Shown here: one piece after another, positions 46,381-56,436 of the stretch
How positions within the stretch are numbered: position 1 is the first letter of the stretch
Layout: the number at the start of each line of letters is the position of its first letter
Source: an uncultured Pseudomonadota bacterium
GTDB lineage: Bacteria; Oederibacteriota; Muellerivitia; Muellerivitales; Muellerivitaceae
Direction of reading: 5' to 3'
Assembly (NCBI GenBank): GCA_963836235.1
Contig: CAWIIP010000002.1
Location: 224,001 to 288,000, forward strand
DNA: 64,000 bases
Made by a program: the position numbers and the translations under genes
The notes under the pieces: model-generated
Seen by the model: the letters and a program-made list of their open reading frames with translations, nothing else
Told to the model about the DNA's origin: nothing
The model's database searches: none

Positions 46381-47454
46381 ATGACTGAAGCAAAACAAAC
46401 TTTCCCCATGGCGGAAGCCAAAAAAATCGTCGACGACCTCTTCGAGCCCAGCGCGGCCCTCTATTGGGCCGATCTCCTCTTTAACACTATCCTCGGCTGG
46501 GGGGCCTTCGTCTTGGCGGTTTTATCCCCCAACTTTTCAGCCATCCAAATCCTCAGTCTGGCCGTTTCGGTCTTTTGCCTCTACCGGGCGGTGATCTTTA
46601 TTCACGAATTAACCCACCTCAAAAAAGACACTTTCGGCTTGTTCCGGATCGTTTGGAACCTGCTTTGCGGCTTCCCCTTCATGGTCCCCTCCTTCACCTA
46701 TATGGGCGTCCATATCGACCACCATAAACAGAAAATGTATGGCACCCGGGACGACGGCGAATACCTTCCCTTTGTCCTGATGGGCCGCTTTCGGATTATT
46801 CTTTTCTTTTTAACCATGCTGGTCGTTCCCTTTGTCTTTACCCTCCGCTTCCTGCTGACCCCCATTTCTTACCTCATTCCACCCCTCCGCAAGCTCCTTT
46901 GGGAATACCTTTCGTCGCTTTCCATTGACCCCGAATGGGCTCGCCCCGCCCCCCAGGAAAGGGACGGCAAATGGTGGCAATTGCAGGAATGGCTGACCTT
47001 CGGTTATGCCGTGGCTTTTGGCTGGTTGCTGTGGAAAGGAATACTGCCGCTGAAAGTGCTGGTTCTCTGGTACATCGTGGCGACGCTGATCTTATTGACC
47101 AACGGCATTCGAACCGTCGCGGCCACCCATTGTTACCGCAACCCCGCCGACCACATTTTGGAATTTTCGGAGCAGTTTTTGGACTCGGTCACCGTCCCCG
47201 GCAACCCCGTCACTACCGGCCTCTGGGCCCCTGTCGGCCTTCGCTACCACGCCGTCCATCATTTGTTTCCCGGCATGCCCTATCATAACCTGGGGAAAGC
47301 CCATTATCGCTTAATGAAGGAACTGCCGGAGAATTCGATCTATCGTTTGAGCCTGAGGAAAAGCCTTTGGCATGGGCTGTCACAGCTTTGGAGGGAAACG
47401 ACCGCCGCCCAAACGGCCAAGCAGGCGGTTGGAAGAACTTCGAAAGTTTCTTAG
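46381..47454 (+). CDS. Membrane fatty acid desaturase family protein
   Basis: His boxes HELTH, HIDHH and HAVHH with TM segments. Confidence 0.88.
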   Translation: MTEAKQTFPMAEAKKIVDDLFEPSAALYWADLLFNTILGWGAFVLAVLSPNFSAIQILSLAVSVFCLYRAVIFIHELTHLKKDTFGLFRIVWNLLCGFPFMVPSFTYMGVHIDHHKQKMYGTRDDGEYLPFVLMGRFRIILFFLTMLVVPFVFTLRFLLTPISYLIPPLRKLLWEYLSSLSIDPEWARPAPQERDGKWWQLQEWLTFGYAVAFGWLLWKGILPLKVLVLWYIVATLILLTNGIRTVAATHCYRNPADHILEFSEQFLDSVTVPGNPVTTGLWAPVGLRYHAVHHLFPGMPYHNLGKAHYRLMKELPENSIYRLSLRKSLWHGLSQLWRETTAAQTAKQAVGRTSKVS

Positions 47455-47485
47455 ATATTCCAAATCCGTTTTGACATTTTCTCCC

Positions 47486-47512
47486 TTGACAAGGTTATAC
47501 CGAAGTTATACT
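47486..47512 (+). promoter_or_regulatory. TA promoter/operator, probably leaderless
   Basis: TTGACA (47486) and TATACT (47507) with a short 15-nt spacer. GTTATAC is repeated at 11-bp spacing. ATG lies 8 nt after the -10 with no SD. Confidence 0.45.
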
Positions 47513-47520
47513 TTTGACTT

Positions 47521-47757
47521 ATGAAAACAGCTATCTCCATTCCTCATAAGGTTTTTGAAACTGCCGAAAAACTGGCCGAAAAACTGGGTGTTTCCCGAAG
47601 CCAACTCTATGTAACGGCTATTAAAGATTACCTTGATGGCCATATGGATGATTCCGTGACGGCTAAACTCAACGAACTTTATGCCGATACGGATTCTAAG
47701 CTTGGCCCCGCGCTGAGGAAACTTCAGGCAAAGTCTATTTCTAAGGATGGGTGGTGA
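47521..47757 (+). CDS. RHH antitoxin (ChpI/MazE-like)
   Basis: MKTAISIP...AEKLGVSRSQLY ribbon-helix-helix; overlaps the toxin start. Confidence 0.85.
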   Translation: MKTAISIPHKVFETAEKLAEKLGVSRSQLYVTAIKDYLDGHMDDSVTAKLNELYADTDSKLGPALRKLQAKSISKDGW

Positions 47758-48095
47758 ACCGGGGCGAAATTTGGTGGGCGGACCTACCCGGCCCCAAAGC
47801 TTCGGAACCTGGATACAGCCGCCCCGTCCTAATTGTTCAATCAGACGCGTTTAATCGCAGCCGCATTCAAACCATTGTCGCCATCGCTCTTACGTCCAAT
47901 CTCCGATTGGCCGATGCTCCTGGAAATGTGAAACTATCCGCGCGTAAAACGGGTCTTCCAAAAGATTCGGTGGCCAATGTGTCCCAAATCATTACCCTGG
48001 ACAAAACCTTTCTGAGGGACAAATCTGGAAAATTGGACGCGTTAACAATAAACCACATTGAAGATGGAATAAAACTTTTGCTGGATTTGAAATAA
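47751..48095 (+). CDS. PemK/MazF-family toxin
   Basis: RGEIWWADL, EPGYSRPVLIVQSDAFN and GLPKDSVANVSQIITLDK. Confidence 0.92.
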   Translation: MVNRGEIWWADLPGPKASEPGYSRPVLIVQSDAFNRSRIQTIVAIALTSNLRLADAPGNVKLSARKTGLPKDSVANVSQIITLDKTFLRDKSGKLDALTINHIEDGIKLLLDLK

Positions 48096-48142
48096 TTCTT
48101 GAGTAGAACACAGGCGCAGTAATGTGCAGGTCAATCCTTGGC

Positions 48143-48298
48143 TTGTTTCCCGGCATGCCCTATCCCAACCTGGGAAAAGCCCACTATCGTTTGAGCCTGA
48201 GAAAGAGCCTTTGGCATGGTTTGTCGCAACTGTGGAAGGAAACAACTGCTGCCCAAACGGCCAAACAGGCGGTTGGAAGAACTTCAAAGGCTTCTTAA
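48143..48298 (+). pseudogene. Duplicated 3' end of the desaturase gene (matches 47263-47454)
   Basis: Encodes LFPGMPYPNLGKAHYR/LSLRKSLWHGLSQLWKETTAAQTAKQAVGRTSKAS*, with a 36-nt in-frame deletion between two tatcg microhomologies. Confidence 0.92.
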
Positions 48299-48395
48299 AA
48301 TCCTAAATACCTCCCTGTCGTGGACAAAAAAATAATGGTTAATGGTGGCCTGACCCCGTTTTTCACTTTACGGACGATTGCGTAAGTCGTTTGAT

Positions 48396-49192
48396 TCAAG
48401 GCAAAACATTAGTTTTCCTCCAAGTTTGATAAACATCTGATTTCAAGATTGGGATGAATTGAGTATCTTTGTTTAGAACCTCTTGATACTTGGAATCCAA
48501 TTGGATGACTTTTGCGATTTCTCGGACAGCTAATTCCGGTTGATTTTCGGCCCAATAAGCGAGCGTTAAATTGTAATGACCCATTAAATAATCCGGCTTA
48601 ATTCTAACTGATCTTTGTAAGGCTTGAGCCGCTTCATAACCATAAGCTGTTCCCTTTTGCCGTAAATAAGCATAACCCATTAAACCCCACGCCTCATAAT
48701 TCTCGTAATCACATGAAGTGGCCTCCATATATTCTTGGATAGCATTTCTATAATCTTGAACGCGGTAATATTCCTTTCCCTTTTTTAAATGTTTCCAGGT
48801 TTCCGCGAAAGGATTAAGCCATTTGTAATTCCTAACAAAAGCAGGAGTTCCTTCTGAATCGTTCCCTATAATTTCATCAATATCAACATCCTTAAACACA
48901 GGAGGGGTAAAATTTCCATCTTCACTAACATCTTCACCCTTGAAAGCCGGTATTATTTTTCCATTATAAAAAAAATAAAATTCTGACGAACAAGCCCTAG
49001 CAGACAACGCACACCAATGAAGACCAAAAAAAATAGGCCCTCTTTTTTTTATCAAACCAAAATCCATATACGAAGGCCAAATACTCTCAAAAGGAAGTTG
49101 ATCAAGCAATTTTCCATCTTCATCAAAAACCATTAACATTCTTTGACCGGAAATTTCATCCGGGGCCATTAGAAAAATTTCCTTTTTCCCAT
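48396..49192 (-). pseudogene. 5'-truncated AT-rich TPR protein gene, cut by IS21
   Basis: C-terminal TPRs (GKEYYRVQDYRNAIQEY, AWGLMGYAY, GHYNLTLAY). The first ~39 aa of the ORF-track call read out of the IS left end. Confidence 0.7.
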
Positions 49193-49279
49193 TGTAAACG
49201 CCGTTCCAAAACCGTGACGGTCTAGAGGCCCTCTCAGGGCGGTCGAAAAGTGTGACACTCCCCGAAATTACCGGATGAT

Positions 49280-50836
49280 GTGTGTTTTTCAGCGATGAAA
49301 ACCACGCCACCGGAAGGAAAAGGAGTGTACAAAGACATGGACCAATGGACGGAAATCCGCAAGAAAATCCTGGTGGAAGGGGTCTCCAAGCGCCAGGTGA
49401 TGGAAGAAGAAGGCATCCACTGGGAAACCCTCCAGAAAATACTCGCCCATAGCGAGCCTCCCGGCTACCAGATGAGCCAGGAGAGGCCCCAGCCCAAAGT
49501 GGGGCCCTTCTTGGGCCGGATCAAGCAAATCCTAGAAGACGACAAACACACCCACAAAAAGCAACGCCATACCGCCAAGCGCATCTTTGAGCGTCTGCGT
49601 AAAGAGGATGGTTACACGGGTGGGTATACCCAGGTGAAAAAAGCCGTCCGCGGGATCAAGCACAGGAACAGCGAAGTTTTCGTGCCGTTGTCGCACCGGC
49701 CTGGTGAGGCACAGGTGGACTTTGGGCACGCCCTGGTCAAACTCAATGGCGTGCTGGTAAAACGCCCCTACTTTGTGATGGCCTTGCCCTATTTGGATGC
49801 TTTCTTCGTGCAGATATTCGAGCGGGAGAGTACGGAGTTCGTCTGGGAAGGCCACATCCGGGCCTTTGAGTACTTCGGCGGCGTGCCTTCACGGATTAGC
49901 TATGACAACGCCAAAACCCTCGTGAAAAAGCTGATCGGGGTACACCAACGGGAATTGACACGGAGTTTCCAACAGTTGGTAAGCCACTATCTCTTCGACC
50001 ACCACTTCTGCACCGTACGCCGGGGTAACGAAAAGGGTGTGGTGGAAGGCGGGGTGAAGTATGTCCGACTAAATTTCATGGTGCCGGTTCCGCAAGTGGG
50101 ACATTTGGAGGAACTGAACAAAAAATTGGTGGTGAACTGCGATGAGGATTTGGAACGCAAATTGCGCGGCAAAGGGGCAGTCAAAGCCAAGCTTCTTGAA
50201 GAGGACAAAGCCCATTTTCGGCCTTTGCCCGCTACACCTTTTGATGCTTGTCTGAAGCAATCCACGACGGCCACATCCTTGTCCCTGGTTCGCTTCGACA
50301 CCAACGACTATTCCGTGCCATCGGAATGGGCTCACCATCCGGTGGTGGTGAAAGGATACATCGACCGGGTGGATATTTTTTACAAGGCCAGGCGAATTGC
50401 GACCCATGATCGTCTTTGGTGCAAGGAAGGCGTAACCTTCAATCCGGTGCATTATTTGGCGGTTTTGGAGGGAAAGCCTGGGGCACTGGACCATGCCCGG
50501 CCCCTGGAAGATTGGAACCTGCCGGAGAGTTTCACCCTCTTGCGCCGTCGCATGGAAGGAAAGGAAAAGTTTCACGGCGAGGGGACGAGGGAATTCATCA
50601 AGACGTTGCGGCTTTTGGAAAAGAATTCCATGGGCAGGCTCCACCGGGCCGTGAAAAAAGCCGTTCAGATGGAAATTTATACACGCGATGCCGTCGCCCA
50701 GTTGCTCTACTCCAAGGAAGATTTCAGACTGACCACCTTCAGCTTGGCCGGTCGTGAGCATTTGCGGCGGGTTCAGGTGGCCCGGACAGATCTTTTGGCC
50801 TACCGAGAACTGATGGCCGTTGGAGGTGAAGCATGA
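49280..50836 (+). CDS. istA: IS21 transposase IstA
   Basis: HTAKRIFERL, GEAQVDFG, YDNAK and EKGVVEGGV (DDE). The true start is probably 49326 or 49337-region rather than 49280. Confidence 0.93.
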   Translation: MCFSAMKTTPPEGKGVYKDMDQWTEIRKKILVEGVSKRQVMEEEGIHWETLQKILAHSEPPGYQMSQERPQPKVGPFLGRIKQILEDDKHTHKKQRHTAKRIFERLRKEDGYTGGYTQVKKAVRGIKHRNSEVFVPLSHRPGEAQVDFGHALVKLNGVLVKRPYFVMALPYLDAFFVQIFERESTEFVWEGHIRAFEYFGGVPSRISYDNAKTLVKKLIGVHQRELTRSFQQLVSHYLFDHHFCTVRRGNEKGVVEGGVKYVRLNFMVPVPQVGHLEELNKKLVVNCDEDLERKLRGKGAVKAKLLEEDKAHFRPLPATPFDACLKQSTTATSLSLVRFDTNDYSVPSEWAHHPVVVKGYIDRVDIFYKARRIATHDRLWCKEGVTFNPVHYLAVLEGKPGALDHARPLEDWNLPESFTLLRRRMEGKEKFHGEGTREFIKTLRLLEKNSMGRLHRAVKKAVQMEIYTRDAVAQLLYSKEDFRLTTFSLAGREHLRRVQVARTDLLAYRELMAVGGEA

Positions 50837-51606
50837 GCGAAACCAAAAAGACCCTCTTGCTGGAACACCACCTCAAAAAACTCAAGTTGCCTACCATGCA
50901 CCGCGAGTACGACAAGATGGCCCAACTCTGTCGTACTGAACGCAGTGATTATCCGCAGTACCTGTTCAAGCTGGCCGAACTGGAACTTCTTGACCGGGAA
51001 CGCCGGGCCAAGGAGAGGCGTATCCGGGATGCGGGCTTTCCCGTGCTCAAGACATTGGACACGTTCGACTTCAAAGCTCAGCCTTCGATCAACCAGGAAT
51101 TGACGCGGGAACTCATGCGGGGCGAGTACATCGACAAAAAAGAAAACGTCCTGCTGATCGGAAATTCAGGAACAGGTAAAACCCATTTGGCCACGGCCTT
51201 GGCCTTCCAGGCCTGCTGCCAGGGCCGGGCGGTGCGGTTCTTCTCCGTCACCGGCCTTGTGACGGAACTTTTGGAGCGCCGGGAGGAAAAACAATTGGCC
51301 AAGTTCCACCGGCAGTTGGCCAGGCTCCACCTGATCGTCCTGGACGAACTGGGTTACGTACCCTTCACCAAGGCGGGGGCCGAGCTGCTATTCGAGGTGG
51401 TCAGCAAGGCCTATGAGCGTACCAGCCTGATGGTAACCACTAATTTGCCCTTTGAAAATTGGGTGGAAATCATGGGTTCGGAAAGAATGACGGGGGCTCT
51501 TATTGACCGTTTGACCCATCGGGTGCATATTCTGGAGGCCAACGGCCAAAGCTTCAGGCTGGGGGAAGCGAAAAAACGGCTAAGGCGTAAAGACAAGAAG
51601 GATTGA
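50833..51606 (+). CDS. istB: IS21 ATPase helper IstB
   Basis: GNSGTGKTHLA, LDELGY, TTNLPF and LIDRLTHR. Confidence 0.95.
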   Translation: MSETKKTLLLEHHLKKLKLPTMHREYDKMAQLCRTERSDYPQYLFKLAELELLDRERRAKERRIRDAGFPVLKTLDTFDFKAQPSINQELTRELMRGEYIDKKENVLLIGNSGTGKTHLATALAFQACCQGRAVRFFSVTGLVTELLERREEKQLAKFHRQLARLHLIVLDELGYVPFTKAGAELLFEVVSKAYERTSLMVTTNLPFENWVEIMGSERMTGALIDRLTHRVHILEANGQSFRLGEAKKRLRRKDKKD

Positions 51607-51706
51607 AAAGATTAACCAACGACCATACACCCTAAAGGCGTATGGAAGGCGGGGGGTGTCACACTTTTGGACCGCCCACCGTCACACTTTTCGACCGGCG
51701 CGGACA

Positions 51707-51895
51707 TTTTAAGTAGGTCACCTTCTTAGCCCGGTGCTTTCGAACAACTTTGGAGATGACTTCCTGGAAAAAACAAAGGACTACGTAAGGAGTTAACCCC
51801 TTATGCTTCCGATGAGACCGGGAGACATGGGGTTCCAACATAGCTTTCCGCGAGGGGTCGAATTCCAAGATTGGATAACGTTGACGTTTAAGCAT
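51707..51895 (-). pseudogene. 3'-truncated nucleoside phosphorylase-like gene
   Basis: YPILEFDPSRKAMLEP...VVLCFFQEVI resembles the N-terminus of nucleoside phosphorylase family proteins. The frame enters the IS at ...TYLK|C. Confidence 0.6.
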
Positions 51896-51944
51896 TTAAT
51901 GATCCAACCTTTTTAAAATTAATAGAGCCGTTGGAAATAATCTT

Positions 51945-51970
51945 GTCCACGACGGGTCCCCTTCGTGGAC
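51945..51970. other. Small hairpin gtccacga-N10-tcgtggac
   Basis: 8-bp perfect inverted repeat just beyond the last rluD 3' duplicate. Confidence 0.5.
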
Positions 51971-51992
51971 ACCAACTACATTCAAAACCCAA

Positions 51993-52119
51993 CTACTTCA
52001 CCCAAACCAAATCTTTCAACTCGGGCGGATCAATGCCTAGCATCACCAAGCATTCCTCGAAATCCACGGGCGGAAGAACCGTATAGGTCTTCGTGATTCC
52101 CGTCTGGGGTGTTGTTGGA
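51993..52119 (-). pseudogene. Duplicated rluD 3' end, copy C
   Basis: TGITKTYTVLPPVDFEECLVMLGIDPPELKDLVWVK* matches 53529-53655. Confidence 0.93.
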
Positions 52120-52128
52120 GGAAGTAAA

Positions 52129-52338
52129 TTATTTATTCCAGTCGGAAGGATGAATATCGGCTTGCCGGAGAATTTCGCGCAGAAGAGGAATTCCAATATC
52201 ACCCTGATGTGGATTGGGGATGCGGAGTTTTAAGGTGCCTTTCACCATGAACATATGCTTCCCTCCGCTATAGGGACCCTCAAAACCTAGGCGGACCAAA
52301 CCCCGGATCAAATCACGCCGGGAAACGGGTCTAAGCAT
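52129..52338 (-). CDS. hicA: HicA-family toxin
   Basis: LVRLGFEGPYSGGKHMFM...IPNPH...DIGIPLLREILRQA. Confidence 0.88.
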   Translation of the reverse strand: MLRPVSRRDLIRGLVRLGFEGPYSGGKHMFMVKGTLKLRIPNPHQGDIGIPLLREILRQADIHPSDWNK

Positions 52339-52576
52339 GAACTAAATTCGGCAATTTCAAGCGCTTACCCTGGATCACGGGAAGTTTATCACCCTGCCGA
52401 ACTTTTAATAAAACCCACTCTTCCAAGACTTCCTGGAGAACCTTCCGGCAATCCTCCAGCCCTTTTTCATTCGACCAAACACCCTTAAAACCAGGTACTT
52501 CACCGTAATAGGTTTTGTCCTCAAGAATTTTATATTTCGCTTGCCCCATCGCAGTCTGAATATATTCCATAAACAT
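52331..52576 (-). CDS. hicB: HicB-family antitoxin (short)
   Basis: YYGEVPGFKGVWSN...LEDCRKVLQEVLEEW. AAGGAG SD and an extended -10 TGATATAAT upstream. Confidence 0.85.
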   Translation of the reverse strand: MFMEYIQTAMGQAKYKILEDKTYYGEVPGFKGVWSNEKGLEDCRKVLQEVLEEWVLLKVRQGDKLPVIQGKRLKLPNLVHA

Positions 52577-52641
52577 GTTGGGCTCCTTTGTGAGGGCATT
52601 ATATCAAAGCTAATTAAGTTACGAACAATGTTAAAACCCGC

Positions 52642-52768
52642 TTATTTCACCCAAACCAAATCTTTCCACTCCAGCGGGTCAAGCCCCAGCATCACCAGGC
52701 ATTCCTCAAAATCCACGGGAGGAAGAACCGTATAGGTCTTCGTGATTCCCGTCTTGGGGTGTTGGAAA
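52642..52768 (-). pseudogene. Duplicated rluD 3' end, copy B
   Basis: FQHPKTGITKTYTVLPPVDFEECLVMLGLDPLEWKDLVWVK*; 6 mismatches in 127 nt versus 53529-53655. Confidence 0.95.
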
Positions 52769-52816
52769 AATAACCGCACAATCTCACCTTCCCGCCGTAA
52801 ATGACGCAACTCCGAA

Positions 52817-53230
52817 TCAATGCCTTTTTAGAAACAACAAAAATTGCCGGGGATTAACAATTCTAATTTTCCGGAAAGACTTGAGATCAAGCAGATCCTT
52901 GTCGCCTGTAACGATAAAATCGGCCTGACCGGCGACAGCGCATTCCAAAACAGGATTGTCCTTGGGGTCGCGGCTGGCGATAACTTTGATAACGGGGGAA
53001 ACCCATTCAGCATCACTTTTAAGAAGTTCAAGGGTATCCAAGATGTCATGGGGATTGACGAATGCTGAGATTTTGGGTTTCCGGCAAGCGGCATTAAACT
53101 CGGTGACGAGTTCGGGTGAGGTGATTATATCGAAAAGTCCATCCAAAAAAGCCCTGCGAACGGCGAGACAATTTCGGCTTCCAAGAAGAATGCTGATTAA
53201 TACATTGGTGTCAATGACGGCTCTTGCCAC
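52817..53230 (-). CDS. PIN-domain toxin (PIN_3 type)
   Basis: AVIDTNVLIS, RDPKDNPVLECA and IVTGDKDLL. Confidence 0.92.
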   Translation of the reverse strand: MARAVIDTNVLISILLGSRNCLAVRRAFLDGLFDIITSPELVTEFNAACRKPKISAFVNPHDILDTLELLKSDAEWVSPVIKVIASRDPKDNPVLECAVAGQADFIVTGDKDLLDLKSFRKIRIVNPRQFLLFLKRH

Positions 53231-53444
53231 GTAATTCCTTGCGGGTTTCCTTGACCAAAGCCACTATTTCCTTCTCGCTCAAGCGGTTCTTTGTAGTCCT
53301 TTTTTGGATGCGGTTCAGAAGGGGGGTCCAACGTTCTCGCCGGGTCTGCCTTTCGAGCTCGTGGGCCAGCTTGATTTTGTCTTTTACGGAAAGCTGTTGG
53401 ATGAGATTTTCAATATCCACAGGAACTTTGACGGCGAGATTCAT
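53211..53444 (-). CDS. Putative antitoxin partner of the PIN toxin
   Basis: MNLAVKV... with GGAGG SD; overlaps the PIN start. TTGGAT-N17-TACAAT promoter lies between it and the rluD stop. Confidence 0.7.
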   Translation of the reverse strand: MNLAVKVPVDIENLIQQLSVKDKIKLAHELERQTRRERWTPLLNRIQKRTTKNRLSEKEIVALVKETRKELRGKSRH

Positions 53445-53528
53445 GGATGGCTCCTCCCTTTTACCTTTGCATGTTCTGATTGTAGTCCAATTTGATCCAT
53501 TATCCAATTCACTATTAAGAAAGGGGTA

Positions 53529-54524
53529 TTACTTCACCCAAACCAAATCTTTCCACTCGGGCGGGTCAATGCCCAGCATCACCAGGCATTCCTCAAAATC
53601 CACGGGGGGAAGAACCGTATAGGTCTTCGTGATTCCCGTCTTGGGGTGTTGGAAAGAGAGCCGGAAGGCGTGAAGCATCTGGCGGGGGGCCAAATCGGAA
53701 CCGCCCCCATAAACCGCATCCCCTAAAATGGGATGGTGGATGTATTGCATATGGACGCGGATTTGGTGGGTGCGGCCCGTTTCCAGTTTTAGATGAAGCA
53801 GGCTGGCCTTTTCCGCCTTACCCAGAACCGCGAAATGAGTGACCGCGATTTTCCCGCCCTCGGGTAACACCGCCATTCTTTTGCGGGAGACGAAATGCCG
53901 GCCCAGAGGGGCGTTGACTACCCCAGGCCCTTCCACTTCCCCCTTAACAATCCCTAAATATTCCCGGCTTAGTTTGCGGTATCTCAATTGCTTTACCAGA
54001 CTTTTGTAAGCCGCGTCGGTCTTGGCCACCACGAGAAGCCCCGAAGTATCCTTATCCAGCCTGTGCACCAGCCCCGGCCTTTGAACCCCTCCGACCCCCG
54101 CGATATCCGGGCAATGGGCCATGAGGGCATTGATGAGTGTCTTATCCGGATTCCCCGCGCCGGGATGCACCACCATCCCCACCGGTTTGTTGATCACCAA
54201 AAGAGAGGCGTCCTCAAAGACGATATCCAATTTGATGTCTTGGGCTTTTATATCGGACTTTTTAGAGGGTGGAATGTTGACTTGAAAGGTTTGGCCTTCC
54301 AAAACAATCAAGGAGACTTTTAAGGCCTTCACCGGAAATTGGGGGATGACATGGCCTTCTTTGATGAGAACTTGGGCTTGGTTGCGGGAAAAGGCTTTCA
54401 ACTGGGCAGAGAGGAAAACATCCAGGCGCTTGCCCCCCTCGCCAGGTTGGACGGTAATGAGGGCGGTTTGGGCGGTGGTGGAAGAGGGTTTCATGGAAGG
54501 CATTTTACTTGGAATCGACGGCAA
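53529..54524 (-). CDS. rluD: RluA/RluD-family 23S rRNA pseudouridine synthase
   Basis: S4-like N-terminus, NKPVGMVVHP, HRLDKDTSG and TGRTHQIRVH. Follows lspA/lgt. Start may be 54503. Confidence 0.9.
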   Translation of the reverse strand: MPSIPSKMPSMKPSSTTAQTALITVQPGEGGKRLDVFLSAQLKAFSRNQAQVLIKEGHVIPQFPVKALKVSLIVLEGQTFQVNIPPSKKSDIKAQDIKLDIVFEDASLLVINKPVGMVVHPGAGNPDKTLINALMAHCPDIAGVGGVQRPGLVHRLDKDTSGLLVVAKTDAAYKSLVKQLRYRKLSREYLGIVKGEVEGPGVVNAPLGRHFVSRKRMAVLPEGGKIAVTHFAVLGKAEKASLLHLKLETGRTHQIRVHMQYIHHPILGDAVYGGGSDLAPRQMLHAFRLSFQHPKTGITKTYTVLPPVDFEECLVMLGIDPPEWKDLVWVK

Positions 54525-54547
54525 AACCCAAAAGAAAGAGGGTTTGA

Positions 54548-54648
54548 ACCACCAAGGGCACCAAGTTCACCAAGAACGACGAACATCTAAGATTTTAAAA
54601 TTCTCAAAAGTCTTTTGCTTTCTTGGTGCCCTTGGTGAACTTGGTGGT
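54548..54648. repeat. REP-like imperfect inverted repeat with (caccaagNN)x3 arms
   Basis: accaccaagggcaccaagttcaccaagaa ... ttcttggtgcccttggtgaacttggtggt. Confidence 0.8.
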
Positions 54649-54661
54649 GAAAAAGGTTTTG

Positions 54662-55465: not shown

Positions 55466-55954
55466 TTAAACCCTTTCCCAAGATTGCTTTGGTTTCGCGA
55501 AAAAATAGCCCAACAATAAAAGAGTCAAGCCGACCGTGATACAGGAATCCGCCAAATTGAAAATGTAGGGAAACCATTGGTGCTGGTGGAAACGAACGTC
55601 GATAAAGTCCACGACTTTCCGGTAAAAGACCCTATCAATGAAGTTACCCATCGCCCCGCCCCAAATCAACCCCAGGGAGAGCCGTTGAAGCACTTTCTCG
55701 GAAGGAACGAACCTTTGATAGGCGTAAACAATCAAGCCCGCCCCGCAGGTGATGGCGATAAAAAAGGGAATCCGGACATAGGCGGGGGTATTGGCCATGA
55801 ACCCGAAAGCCGCGCCGGGGTTTTGGATGTAAGTCAAATAAAGATAATCCCGGATGACCATGATCGAATCCCCCATCCGGCAATAGTGCATGACAAGGAA
55901 CTTCGAGATTTGGTCGGAAAGAACCGCCAGTAATGAAACTCTTCGAATGATCAT
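55466..55954 (-). CDS. lspA: Lipoprotein signal peptidase II (copy 2)
   Basis: DQISK, NPGAAFG, GGAMGNFIDR, VVDFI and FNLAD. Confidence 0.92.
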   Translation of the reverse strand: MIIRRVSLLAVLSDQISKFLVMHYCRMGDSIMVIRDYLYLTYIQNPGAAFGFMANTPAYVRIPFFIAITCGAGLIVYAYQRFVPSEKVLQRLSLGLIWGGAMGNFIDRVFYRKVVDFIDVRFHQHQWFPYIFNLADSCITVGLTLLLLGYFFAKPKQSWERV

Positions 55955-56436
55955 GCCCGGGTCTTCTGCCGGTGACCCGCGATAAACTCAAAGAGAAGAT
56001 AGGCGAGCCCCACGGTAATGCAGGCATCCGCCACATTGAAGATATAAGGGAACCATTCGTATTCGTAATAACGCATTTCAATGAAATCGACGACTTTGCC
56101 ATATAAAAGCCGGTCCACCATGTTTCCCAAGGCGCCTCCCCATACCAAACCGAGCGCGATGCGGGTTAGAAGCCTCTCATGGGCCAAGAGCTTTTGGTAC
56201 ATATAAACGATGAAGGTGGCCGCCAGGGTGGCCGCGATAAAAAAGGGAATGCGCACAAAGGGTTCCAAATTGGACATGAAACCAAAGGCGGTTCCGGGAT
56301 TTTGGATATAGGTGAAATATACGAAATCGGGTAAGAGGGGAACGGACTCGTTCAGGGACATTCGGTTTAAAACGAGGAACTTGGTGGCCTGGTCCAAGGC
56401 CAATACCAGCATGGAGATACCCGCCAGCGGCATCAA
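55951..56436 (-). CDS. lspA: Lipoprotein signal peptidase II (copy 1)
   Basis: DQATK, NPGTAFG, GGALGNMVDR, VVDFI and FNVAD. Confidence 0.92.
   Translation of the reverse strand: MMPLAGISMLVLALDQATKFLVLNRMSLNESVPLLPDFVYFTYIQNPGTAFGFMSNLEPFVRIPFFIAATLAATFIVYMYQKLLAHERLLTRIALGLVWGGALGNMVDRLLYGKVVDFIEMRYYEYEWFPYIFNVADACITVGLAYLLFEFIAGHRQKTRA

Follow-up and report, generated by a model that had tools for sequence, protein, structure and literature searches.

The 64,000-nt stretch of DNA considered here, referred to as the window, is G000:C2:224001-288000, part of the genome of an uncultured bacterium (G000) that is assembled as 3.97 Mb in five contigs containing no N, at 99.4% completeness and 0.14% contamination. 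At two genes within it, a fatty-acid desaturase gene and rluD, small toxin-antitoxin (TA) cassettes stand between the intact host gene and a displaced, diverged copy of that gene's own 3' end. The desaturase gene (46381-47454, plus strand; FA_desaturase, Pfam 2e-29) is intact, and the live copy of its tail, as delimited by repeat search, comprises its last 192 nt (47263-47454, plus strand). The MazEF-type mini-cassette that follows (47455-48142, plus strand) consists of an antitoxin and a toxin with their flanks: an upstream region of ~66 nt with promoter-like hexamers; an RHH-like antitoxin open reading frame (ORF; 47521-47757, plus strand), whose RHH_1 score of 19.8 bits falls 0.7 short of the Pfam cut-off of 20.5; a PemK/MazF toxin (47751-48095, plus strand; PemK_toxin, 3.6e-25); and 47 nt of trailing sequence between the MazF stop and the displaced tail. 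That tail (48143-48298, plus strand) is 156 nt long, or 51 codons plus the stop, and, compared with the live tail, has an in-frame gap of 36 nt, which is why the two segments of the repeat differ in spacing: 844 nt for the pair 47340-47453 / 48184-48297 (87% identity) and 880 nt for the pair 47263-47312 / 48143-48192 (90% identity). The repeat alignment continues ~11 nt beyond the live stop.

The second host gene, rluD, encodes a pseudouridine synthase (PseudoU_synth_2, 2.9e-34, together with S4) and is intact at 53529-54524 on the minus strand, to which all features of its array belong. Repeat search finds its tail in triplicate, 135 nt each: the live copy, which is the last 135 nt of the gene (53529-53663), a middle displaced copy of ~44 codons (copy B, 52642-52776), and a distal displaced copy (copy C, 51993-52127) that terminates in TAG and bears a 1-nt deletion close to its 5' limit. 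Compared with the middle copy, the other two have 93% and 79% identity, at spacings of 887 and 649 nt, and the 5' limits of the two displaced tails lie ~15 nt apart or less. The PIN mini-cassette between the live and middle tails (52777-53528) is made up of a presumed antitoxin, a small ORF with no Pfam match (53211-53507, with its likely start at the ATG at 53444), a PIN_3 toxin (52817-53230; Pfam 9.3e-21) and ~40 nt of trailing sequence. The HicAB mini-cassette between the middle and distal tails (52128-52641) has ~65 nt upstream, including TGATATAAT, followed by a HicB-like UPF0150 antitoxin (52331-52576; Pfam 5.4e-29) and a HicA toxin (52129-52338; HicA_toxin, 3.9e-10). At both genes every displaced tail copy terminates at a stop in the host gene's frame. 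The three toxins (PemK_toxin, PIN_3 and HicA_toxin) all score above the Pfam cut-offs, and the three partner genes, predicted to encode the antitoxins, all overlap or abut their toxin gene.

This succession of intact gene, TA module and tail copy, three times at two genes, had been proposed in an initial annotation of the same DNA, and it is confirmed by the repeats, the ORFs and the Pfam matches; the unit lengths given there, 844, 887 and 649 bp, equal the computed repeat spacings. Of the further suggestion that each module has its own promoter, only a resemblance to consensus stands; the number of such sites is near the shuffle level (7 versus 5.4 expected), and only one of them (53506-53479, minus strand) precedes a cassette, that of PIN. 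The absence of a recombinase gene from the units, also claimed at the outset, is upheld by the ORF list and Pfam, with no integrase or transposase ORF within any of the three. G000 has eight tyrosine recombinases, none in the window and the nearest more than 200 kb away (C2:509098), and its highest score with the integron-integrase model TIGR02249 is 40.9 bits, where the cut-off is 265. Across 15 junction pairs the commonest 7-mer occurs in only 4, and no attC-type site was seen there, no attC covariance model having been used; the repeat search found no inverted repeats bounding the window units.

Comparison with relatives bears out the supposition that these units were inserted. In the same-genus genome G001, which is ~85% identical to G000 and 80% complete, and on the metagenome contig L066, the desaturase gene and rluD are convergent, with 47 nt between their stops and a single tail each; RluD of L066 is 79% identical to that of G000. 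Because only 47 nt separate the genes there, the whole 6 kb between desaturase and rluD in G000 represents added DNA, and the gap between the two genes is an insertion hot spot. A metagenome scan for rluD yielded 21 loci, of which two, L065 and L066, are close. L065 (RluD 88% identical) stops 85 nt past rluD; these 85 nt resemble neither spacer nor desaturase, a hint that the L065 lineage has different content at the site, from a sequence too short to rely on. In a tblastn search with the RluD tail, a second tail copy was found at none of 29 other rluD loci, with flanks of up to 1.5 kb. A second empty site is provided by a HAD gene and orf176, which are adjacent in G001, while G000 has a displaced HAD head and an AcrB gene between them. 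Comparisons with G001 at other loci are mostly uninformative because of its ~85% identity and 80% completeness.

The differences between the tails show that at least some of the displaced ends were alleles and not copies made on the spot. Live and displaced desaturase tails differ by 18 synonymous and 3 non-synonymous changes (pN/pS 0.05, binomial p = 3e-9), so that the rate comparison proposed in the initial annotation came out as strongly synonymous. When the changes are polarised with G001 and L066 as outgroups, the displaced tail's own branch carries 8 synonymous to 1 non-synonymous and the live tail's 4 to 1 (counts only). Because its own-branch changes are 8:1 synonymous, the displaced desaturase tail was once inside a working gene; a decaying local duplicate would collect mostly non-synonymous changes, which argues against such an origin. 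For rluD the live and distal copies differ at 5:1 (synonymous to non-synonymous, p = 0.003) and the live and middle copies at 5:4 (p = 0.03). The distal copy, with 4:1 on its own branch (counts only), behaves like the displaced desaturase tail; the middle copy, whose branch has 2:2 (counts only), does not, and may be a duplicate in decay. The earlier view that the tails are former translated alleles is therefore retained for the desaturase tail and the distal rluD copy, and not for the middle copy. The desaturase and rluD tail copies in G000 are nearer each other than to G001, L065 or L066; hence the alleles come from lineages nearer to G000 than the sequenced sister species. The mismatches in the repeats sit at the third position of codons, and no conserved core is seen. 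Across G000, 7 of 13 gene-end repeat pairs surveyed have a strong synonymous bias (synonymous:non-synonymous), namely the tails of desaturase (13:2 in this survey), radical-SAM (7:0), peptidase S9 (10:1) and DinB (16:2) and the heads of orf1106 (11:3), aminotransferase (25:4) and HAD (15:7); the rluD and ParB pairs, 3 of the 13, are intermediate.

The public sequencing runs that cover the region consist of low-depth contigs, none of which spans an entire unit. Two of them, from different studies, cross junctions: a 226-nt contig of run X5 (47390-47615) reads through the desaturase/cassette junction, and a 262-nt contig of run X1, possibly the source sample, reads through the HicB/tail-copy junction (52433-52694), both with zero differences. 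The cassette-to-tail junctions are unique sequence. The only long joint, 47285 to 54548 in run X2, was set aside, since with 29 letters on its shorter side and a likeness threshold of 88 it lies in the range of spurious joints.

The pattern recurs throughout the genome. Self-BLAST of G000 for local direct repeats on the plus strand (50-320 nt, >=75% identity, <=6 kb apart) gave 105 pairs, of which 36 were inspected; these also included repeats within proteins, paralogues and one dispersed repeat. The gene-end repeats are 66-236 nt long and 75-95% identical, with no local pair above 95%, and are locus-specific, each with 2-3 copies in G000. At gene 3' ends, the peptidase S9 tail pair brackets MazF/RHH, the DinB tail pair a Fic/MarR gene, and the radical-SAM tail pair an AbiEii-like nucleotidyltransferase whose match is just under the cut-off. 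At gene 5' ends, repeats of a 1106-aa gene bracket PIN, those of a ParB_N gene ParE/CopG, and those of a HAD hydrolase gene a 3.1-kb AcrB gene. Just downstream of the type I restriction gene hsdR, three copies of a non-coding repeat (L002, C1:565731-568482; 90-143 nt, 78-90% identity) bracket a RES pair and a PIN/FitA pair, with a further PIN (C1:564369-564725) just beyond; an Rfam scan of this repeat returned no family. Bracketed cargo also includes PIN/MazE, HicA, PIN/RHH, and Gp49/HI1420 with ArdC, as well as an LRR protein, GT87, AAA_14/DUF4143, ORF6N, an IS66 transposase and several unknown ORFs. The pattern is more general than 3' ends or TA cargo, and the system described in the initial annotation is one face of it: a specificity for 3' ends has to be given up, since gene 5' ends and non-coding DNA are duplicated alike, and so has a specificity for TA modules, given cargo such as AcrB, Fic, the LRR protein, GT87 and the IS66 transposase.

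Two expectations that accompanied the annotation did hold: gene-end repeats occur beyond the window loci, and toxin genes are enriched between them. Family searches of G000 gave a set of 34 toxin genes (20 PIN or PIN_3, 7 PemK, 5 ParE and 2 HicA), of which 10 lie between qualifying repeats, compared with 3.5% of the genome (binomial p = 1.7e-7). In a more sensitive search, in which the 2 kb on one side were compared with the 2 kb on the other, flanking direct repeats were present at 15 of the 34 toxins versus 36 of 400 random sites.

The cassettes themselves have relatives in other genera. The window MazF is 89% and 91% identical to copies in G012 and G043, which represent two other genera, whereas RluD there is only ~60% identical. 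DNA homology of MazEF with these genomes runs from ~58 nt before the antitoxin ATG to 3-5 nt past the toxin stop (alignment A1), and the PIN cassette shows homology over its whole length to cassettes in the further comparison genome G045 (86%) and in G001 (73%; alignment A2). These alignments show that the cassettes pass from genus to genus and that their limits are sharp. In G012 the MazEF cassette stands directly after the displaced 205-nt tail of an alcohol-dehydrogenase-like (ADH) gene, and a HicAB pair lies between that displaced tail and the live ADH gene. The two ADH tails are 96% identical, with 8 substitutions and 1 indel, the changes being mixed and including a frameshift. The architecture of gene, TA module and tail therefore exists, in a younger form, in another genus.

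In the same genomes, cassettes of these families are also found with a second kind of boundary, GTCCACGAYGGGGACCCRTCGTGGAC, a near-perfect palindrome of 26 nt. It has 34 copies in G000 at <=1 mismatch and occurs in 22 of 32 genomes of the order, or 9 of the 18 genera scanned, while the reversed control gave none; a 10-mer, GTCGTGGACA or its complement, is found 76 times in G000. Palindromes are concentrated in two integron-like arrays, with 14 copies in C2:1192094-1205567 and 11 in C4:135628-145860, in which one or two co-oriented genes are followed by one palindrome copy and the motif repeats. The array cargo, varied and unrelated, comprises AraC, hemerythrin, PIN_3, two BrnT/BrnA pairs, GNAT, HAD, an outer-membrane barrel, an NHL protein and LOG. 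The recombinase nearest an array scores 38.7 with TIGR02249, under the integron-integrase cut-off, and an Rfam scan of one array (L096) found no family; literature searches found no description of such 26-nt palindrome arrays. REP-associated transposase (RAYT) genes are present in G000, and in G012 one such gene adjoins the MazEF cassette. In G001 the homologue of the PIN cassette from the rluD site lies between two palindromes, and in G043 MazEF is followed by one palindrome copy. The desaturase/rluD gap of the window itself contains a full palindrome with one mismatch (51945-51970, or C2:275945-275970, minus strand), 22 nt downstream of the stop of the distal rluD copy, and the half palindrome GTCGTGGACAA (48316-48326, strand not assigned), 18 nt after the stop of the displaced desaturase tail. 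Palindrome remnants within the tail-bracketed cassettes were sought and rejected, all 17 scores being <=13 where the null distribution has its 95th percentile at 12 and its maximum at 19. What looked like a remnant following the PIN stop in A2 was likewise not significant against the consensus, and the idea that repeat limits are palindrome-like cleavage sites was dropped, the best of 11 inner limits corresponding to a null fraction of 0.09.

The rest of the gap between the two arrays is occupied by other features. An element of the IS21 family, so named tentatively from translations read by eye, lies in the same intergenic gap between the arrays, outside all three units (49193-51701, plus strand). 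Its limits were taken from a second copy, 85% identical, at C2:909438-911941, and the ORF list gives its istA (49280-50836) and istB (50833-51606), both on the plus strand. A TPR-repeat ORF (48396-49310, minus strand; Pfam TPR_11/TPR_16) and a small ORF of 78 aa in the ORF list (51659-51895, minus strand) lie on either side of the IS21 element and were probably one minus-strand gene that it interrupted. A second dispersed repeat, of 30-100 nt, is found at the end of locus L016 and at ~45 other places in G000, many of them intergenic, with one copy just upstream of rluD (C2:278543-278653, window ~54543-54653), where there is a 34-nt inverted repeat. Further upstream, tandem paralogous lspA-like (signal peptidase II-like) ORFs at 55466-55954 and 55951-56436, judged from translations, are flanked by lgt-like and ileS-like genes.

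Elsewhere in G000, a displaced aminotransferase head (locus L016, G000:C4:818800-821800) coincides exactly with a synteny switch between G001 contigs C6 and C13; here the gene-end remnant marks a larger rearrangement or import and not a small cassette. A 1056-nt element with a 326-aa ORF, presumably an active insertion sequence, exists in five identical copies (C2:1937438-1938492, C2:1853343, C5:330424, C4:502602 and C4:288775), one of which abuts the displaced DinB tail.

Any explanation of these loci has to bring two divergent forms of a gene end together in the same chromosome by one recent step. With moderate confidence, the units are best read as footprints of ordinary host recombination with DNA of diverged relatives, and not a self-contained mobile system. 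In such a process a relative would carry a small cassette just past the point where a shared gene ends; a fragment of the relative's DNA would recombine with the resident chromosome by one homologous crossover within that gene, and its other end would be joined illegitimately slightly inside the end of the resident gene, as in homology-facilitated illegitimate recombination. The outcome would be an intact gene with the donor's end, then the cassette, then the severed 60-240 nt of the resident gene end. A less likely variant is that the piece circularises and then enters by a single Campbell-type crossover. Repeated events, or recombination from tail to tail, could stack the units into short arrays, and the same process at a gene start would leave a displaced head. 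What is seen would also reflect survivorship: insertions that spare one intact copy of the gene are tolerated, near-identical repeats would delete their cargo, and addictive cargo would resist deletion. TA modules would dominate because they are small, bring their own promoter and penalise repeat-mediated loss through the toxin. The recombination route, the question of which copy is the donor's and the role of addiction in retention are the parts of this account that we infer. The linear route is slightly favoured over the circle because it needs neither a circle nor prior repeats, and the data do not separate the two.

Several observations weigh against this reading. The closeness of the 5' limits of the displaced rluD tails is unexpected for independent illegitimate joints, so that a linear route would need tail-to-tail stacking or a local hot spot. 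Nor do the tight cassette limits, 2-47 nt after the toxin stop, obviously follow from random fragment ends. The middle rluD copy looks neutral on its own branch, and 3 of the 13 surveyed pairs (orf181, orf1157 and orf510) have no synonymous bias, although these ORFs may not be genes. In the other genera the MazEF relatives adjoin other genes, and no donor was found in which the cassette directly follows the same gene. The public runs hold no circles, excision products or empty-site reads, though contigs of such low depth speak neither for nor against them. G000 has ComEC and DprA; this is weak evidence for uptake, because the control genomes mostly have both, and it does not show the organism to be competent. 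In the enrichment test, three of the toxin families were picked after sightings in brackets, and two arrays supply two toxins each to the count.

Linear one-sided recombination yields the same structure without the small circles invoked in the initial annotation. The idea behind these circles, that a circle of gene end plus TA module forms from donor repeats, enters by one RecA crossover and can leave in the same way, with the TA penalising its loss, is possible if rather doubtful. A single crossover would account for the topology and for the head and tail versions alike, and it would explain the arrays together with the near-identical 5' limits of the displaced rluD tails, which would be inherited; the cassettes are compact, and repeats of 66-236 nt are workable for RecA. 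Against this, no circle junction or empty-site contig turned up in the low-depth public contigs, an initial event of another kind is needed to create the repeats, a non-replicating circle has no obvious vehicle between cells, and repeats diverged by 5-25% would be inefficient substrates for repeat-to-repeat excision. It is less probable still, and on the whole unlikely, that the units are true insertions with long target duplication (60-240 nt, identical at birth) in which the live copy was later overwritten by diverged alleles. The architecture does match that described in passages of Furuta, Abe and Kobayashi 2010 (PMC2853133), the G012 ADH tails, with their high identity, mixed changes and frameshift, look like a pair of this kind, and the middle rluD copy resembles a decaying duplicate. 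The pseudo-copy branch of the desaturase is nonetheless too synonymous for a dead copy, allele replacement would be needed at >=7 loci while the dead copies had barely decayed, and a local pair above the 95% mark is lacking.

That a site-specific enzyme acts in trans, be it a RAYT, one of the eight tyrosine recombinases (of ~370 aa) or a partner of the palindrome, on elements that carry a gene end to restore their target in the manner of SCCmec or SGI1, is improbable. In its favour are the sharp cassette limits, the occurrence of the same cassette families in palindrome-delimited arrays of relatives, the spread of the palindrome over half of the genera scanned, the full and half palindromes in the window's own gap, and the RAYT genes of G000 and G012. 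Opposed to it are the lack of a common motif at the 15 junction pairs, of a significant palindrome remnant in the tail-bracketed cassettes, of palindrome-like inner limits and of an integron integrase, and the number and unrelatedness of the targets. An assembly artefact, in which strain haplotypes were stitched together at conserved gene ends, is scarcely credible. In its favour, the sample behind the genome was probably mixed, and each repeat pair consists of divergent versions of one gene end; but the assembly is of high quality, the unique cassette-to-tail junctions are beyond what any insertion-free haplotype could supply, the X5 and X1 contigs cross two junctions without a difference, and the same architecture recurs in the unrelated assembly G012. 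A broader idea, which we regard as speculative, is that the family maintains an integrase-free cassette economy: promoter-bearing cassettes (PIN, MazEF, BrnTA and many non-TA) would circulate between genera, sit in palindrome arrays or at tail-marked gene ends, and be cut at sharp limits and re-inserted by a trans-acting activity, whether a REP-associated transposase or palindrome recombination, amounting to a functional analogue of the integron without IntI or attC.

The finding bears on a question acknowledged to be open (PMC7167474), and the footprint hints at a way for selfish modules that encode no integrase to enter chromosomes. G000 holds about a dozen TA insertions with legible scars, and according to these scars the incoming DNA was 5-25% diverged, the end of the neighbouring gene provided the homology and no element-encoded recombinase was needed. 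Acquisition by horizontal transfer thereby becomes a testable mechanism, with local heteroallelic gene-end repeats as a search image for any genome collection. The scars also point to a reason for the accumulation of TA and of other addictive or defensive genes at these sites, cargo between direct repeats being easily lost unless its loss is harmful. The palindrome arrays are possibly more important than the tail-bracketed insertions.

Among known systems, the closest in structure is the insertion with long target duplication of complexes of restriction-modification (RM) genes, reportedly set out by Nobusato et al. in 2000. The passages of PMC2853133 that bear on it describe integrase-free addiction modules, RM genes, flanked by direct repeats of 30-420 bp from the target, which is present in single copy at the empty site; some of the repeats overlap the 3' end of a gene, and flanking repeats are significantly commoner than for average genes. 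A life cycle of insertion, amplification via the repeats and release is proposed there, and in the rows of its tables considered here the repeats are 93-100% identical to each other. With such long direct target repeats around integrase-free genes already published in that report, the units cannot be presented as a new system, as the initial annotation had done. The window units share with these insertions direct repeats longer than 30 bp (135 and 156-192 nt), inserts shorter than 20 kb (649-887 nt), the absence of mobility genes and, in G001 and L066, related genomes with a single repeat and no insert. They differ in that the cargo is type II TA instead of RM, that several units are stacked at one gene end, and that the repeats are 75-95% identical with synonymous bias, at least some of them never having been copies of one target. 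Repeats copied from one target and decaying neutrally are not what was found: the tails are mutually closest, yet differ at 18:3 and, on the desaturase branch, 8:1 in favour of synonymous changes, and only the middle rluD copy (2:2) loosely fits neutral decay. What is new relative to long target duplication is above all the allelic nature of the repeats, and further the TA cargo and the stacking.

Homology-facilitated illegitimate recombination is known from laboratory selections in transformation (Acinetobacter, pneumococcus and Pseudomonas stutzeri), where one homologous anchor of ~150-200 nt and a microhomology joint suffice with host functions only. It predicts the order seen here, of gene, cargo and severed resident gene end. 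To our knowledge its natural footprints with allelic gene-end remnants have never been catalogued, and a literature search, which returned one modelling paper, found none that links it to TA modules. Nor did any paper turn up that describes allelic gene-end remnants on both sides of TA modules, in a search that left outside its scope the supplementary tables of PMC2853133 and Pandey and Gerdes 2005, either of which may mention such cases.

Integrons, of which the chromosomal ones are reported to be stabilised by TA cassettes (Richard et al. 2024, PMC13108822), and integrase-less attC clusters resemble the units as arrays of short cassettes parted by repeats, where TA cassettes with their own promoters are frequent. 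They differ in that the units have no integron integrase, that their repeats are host gene ends and not attC, and that no junction motif is conserved. Islands such as SCCmec at rlmH, SGI1 at trmE and ICESt1 with its CIME accretions at fda restore the 3' end of their target gene. They too leave an intact gene, the element and the displaced old end, and integrase-less tandem accretion can build arrays. Unlike these islands, which have a cognate integrase, a short identical core and one fixed target, the units lie at >=10 unrelated targets, including 5' ends and non-coding DNA, and have no core. Insertion sequences have a transposase, terminal inverted repeats and a short target duplication, whereas the units have neither a transposase nor bounding inverted repeats and are flanked by direct host-gene copies of 66-236 nt. 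The minimal mobile elements of Neisseria are integrase-free whole-gene cassettes exchanged by flanking homology, with no duplicated gene end. With orphan CdiA-CT and Rhs-CT modules, the region downstream of the live gene collects displaced ends, comparable to the tails here; there, however, the end is the part with toxin function, whereas in the units it belongs to a housekeeping gene and is a bystander to the cassette beside it.

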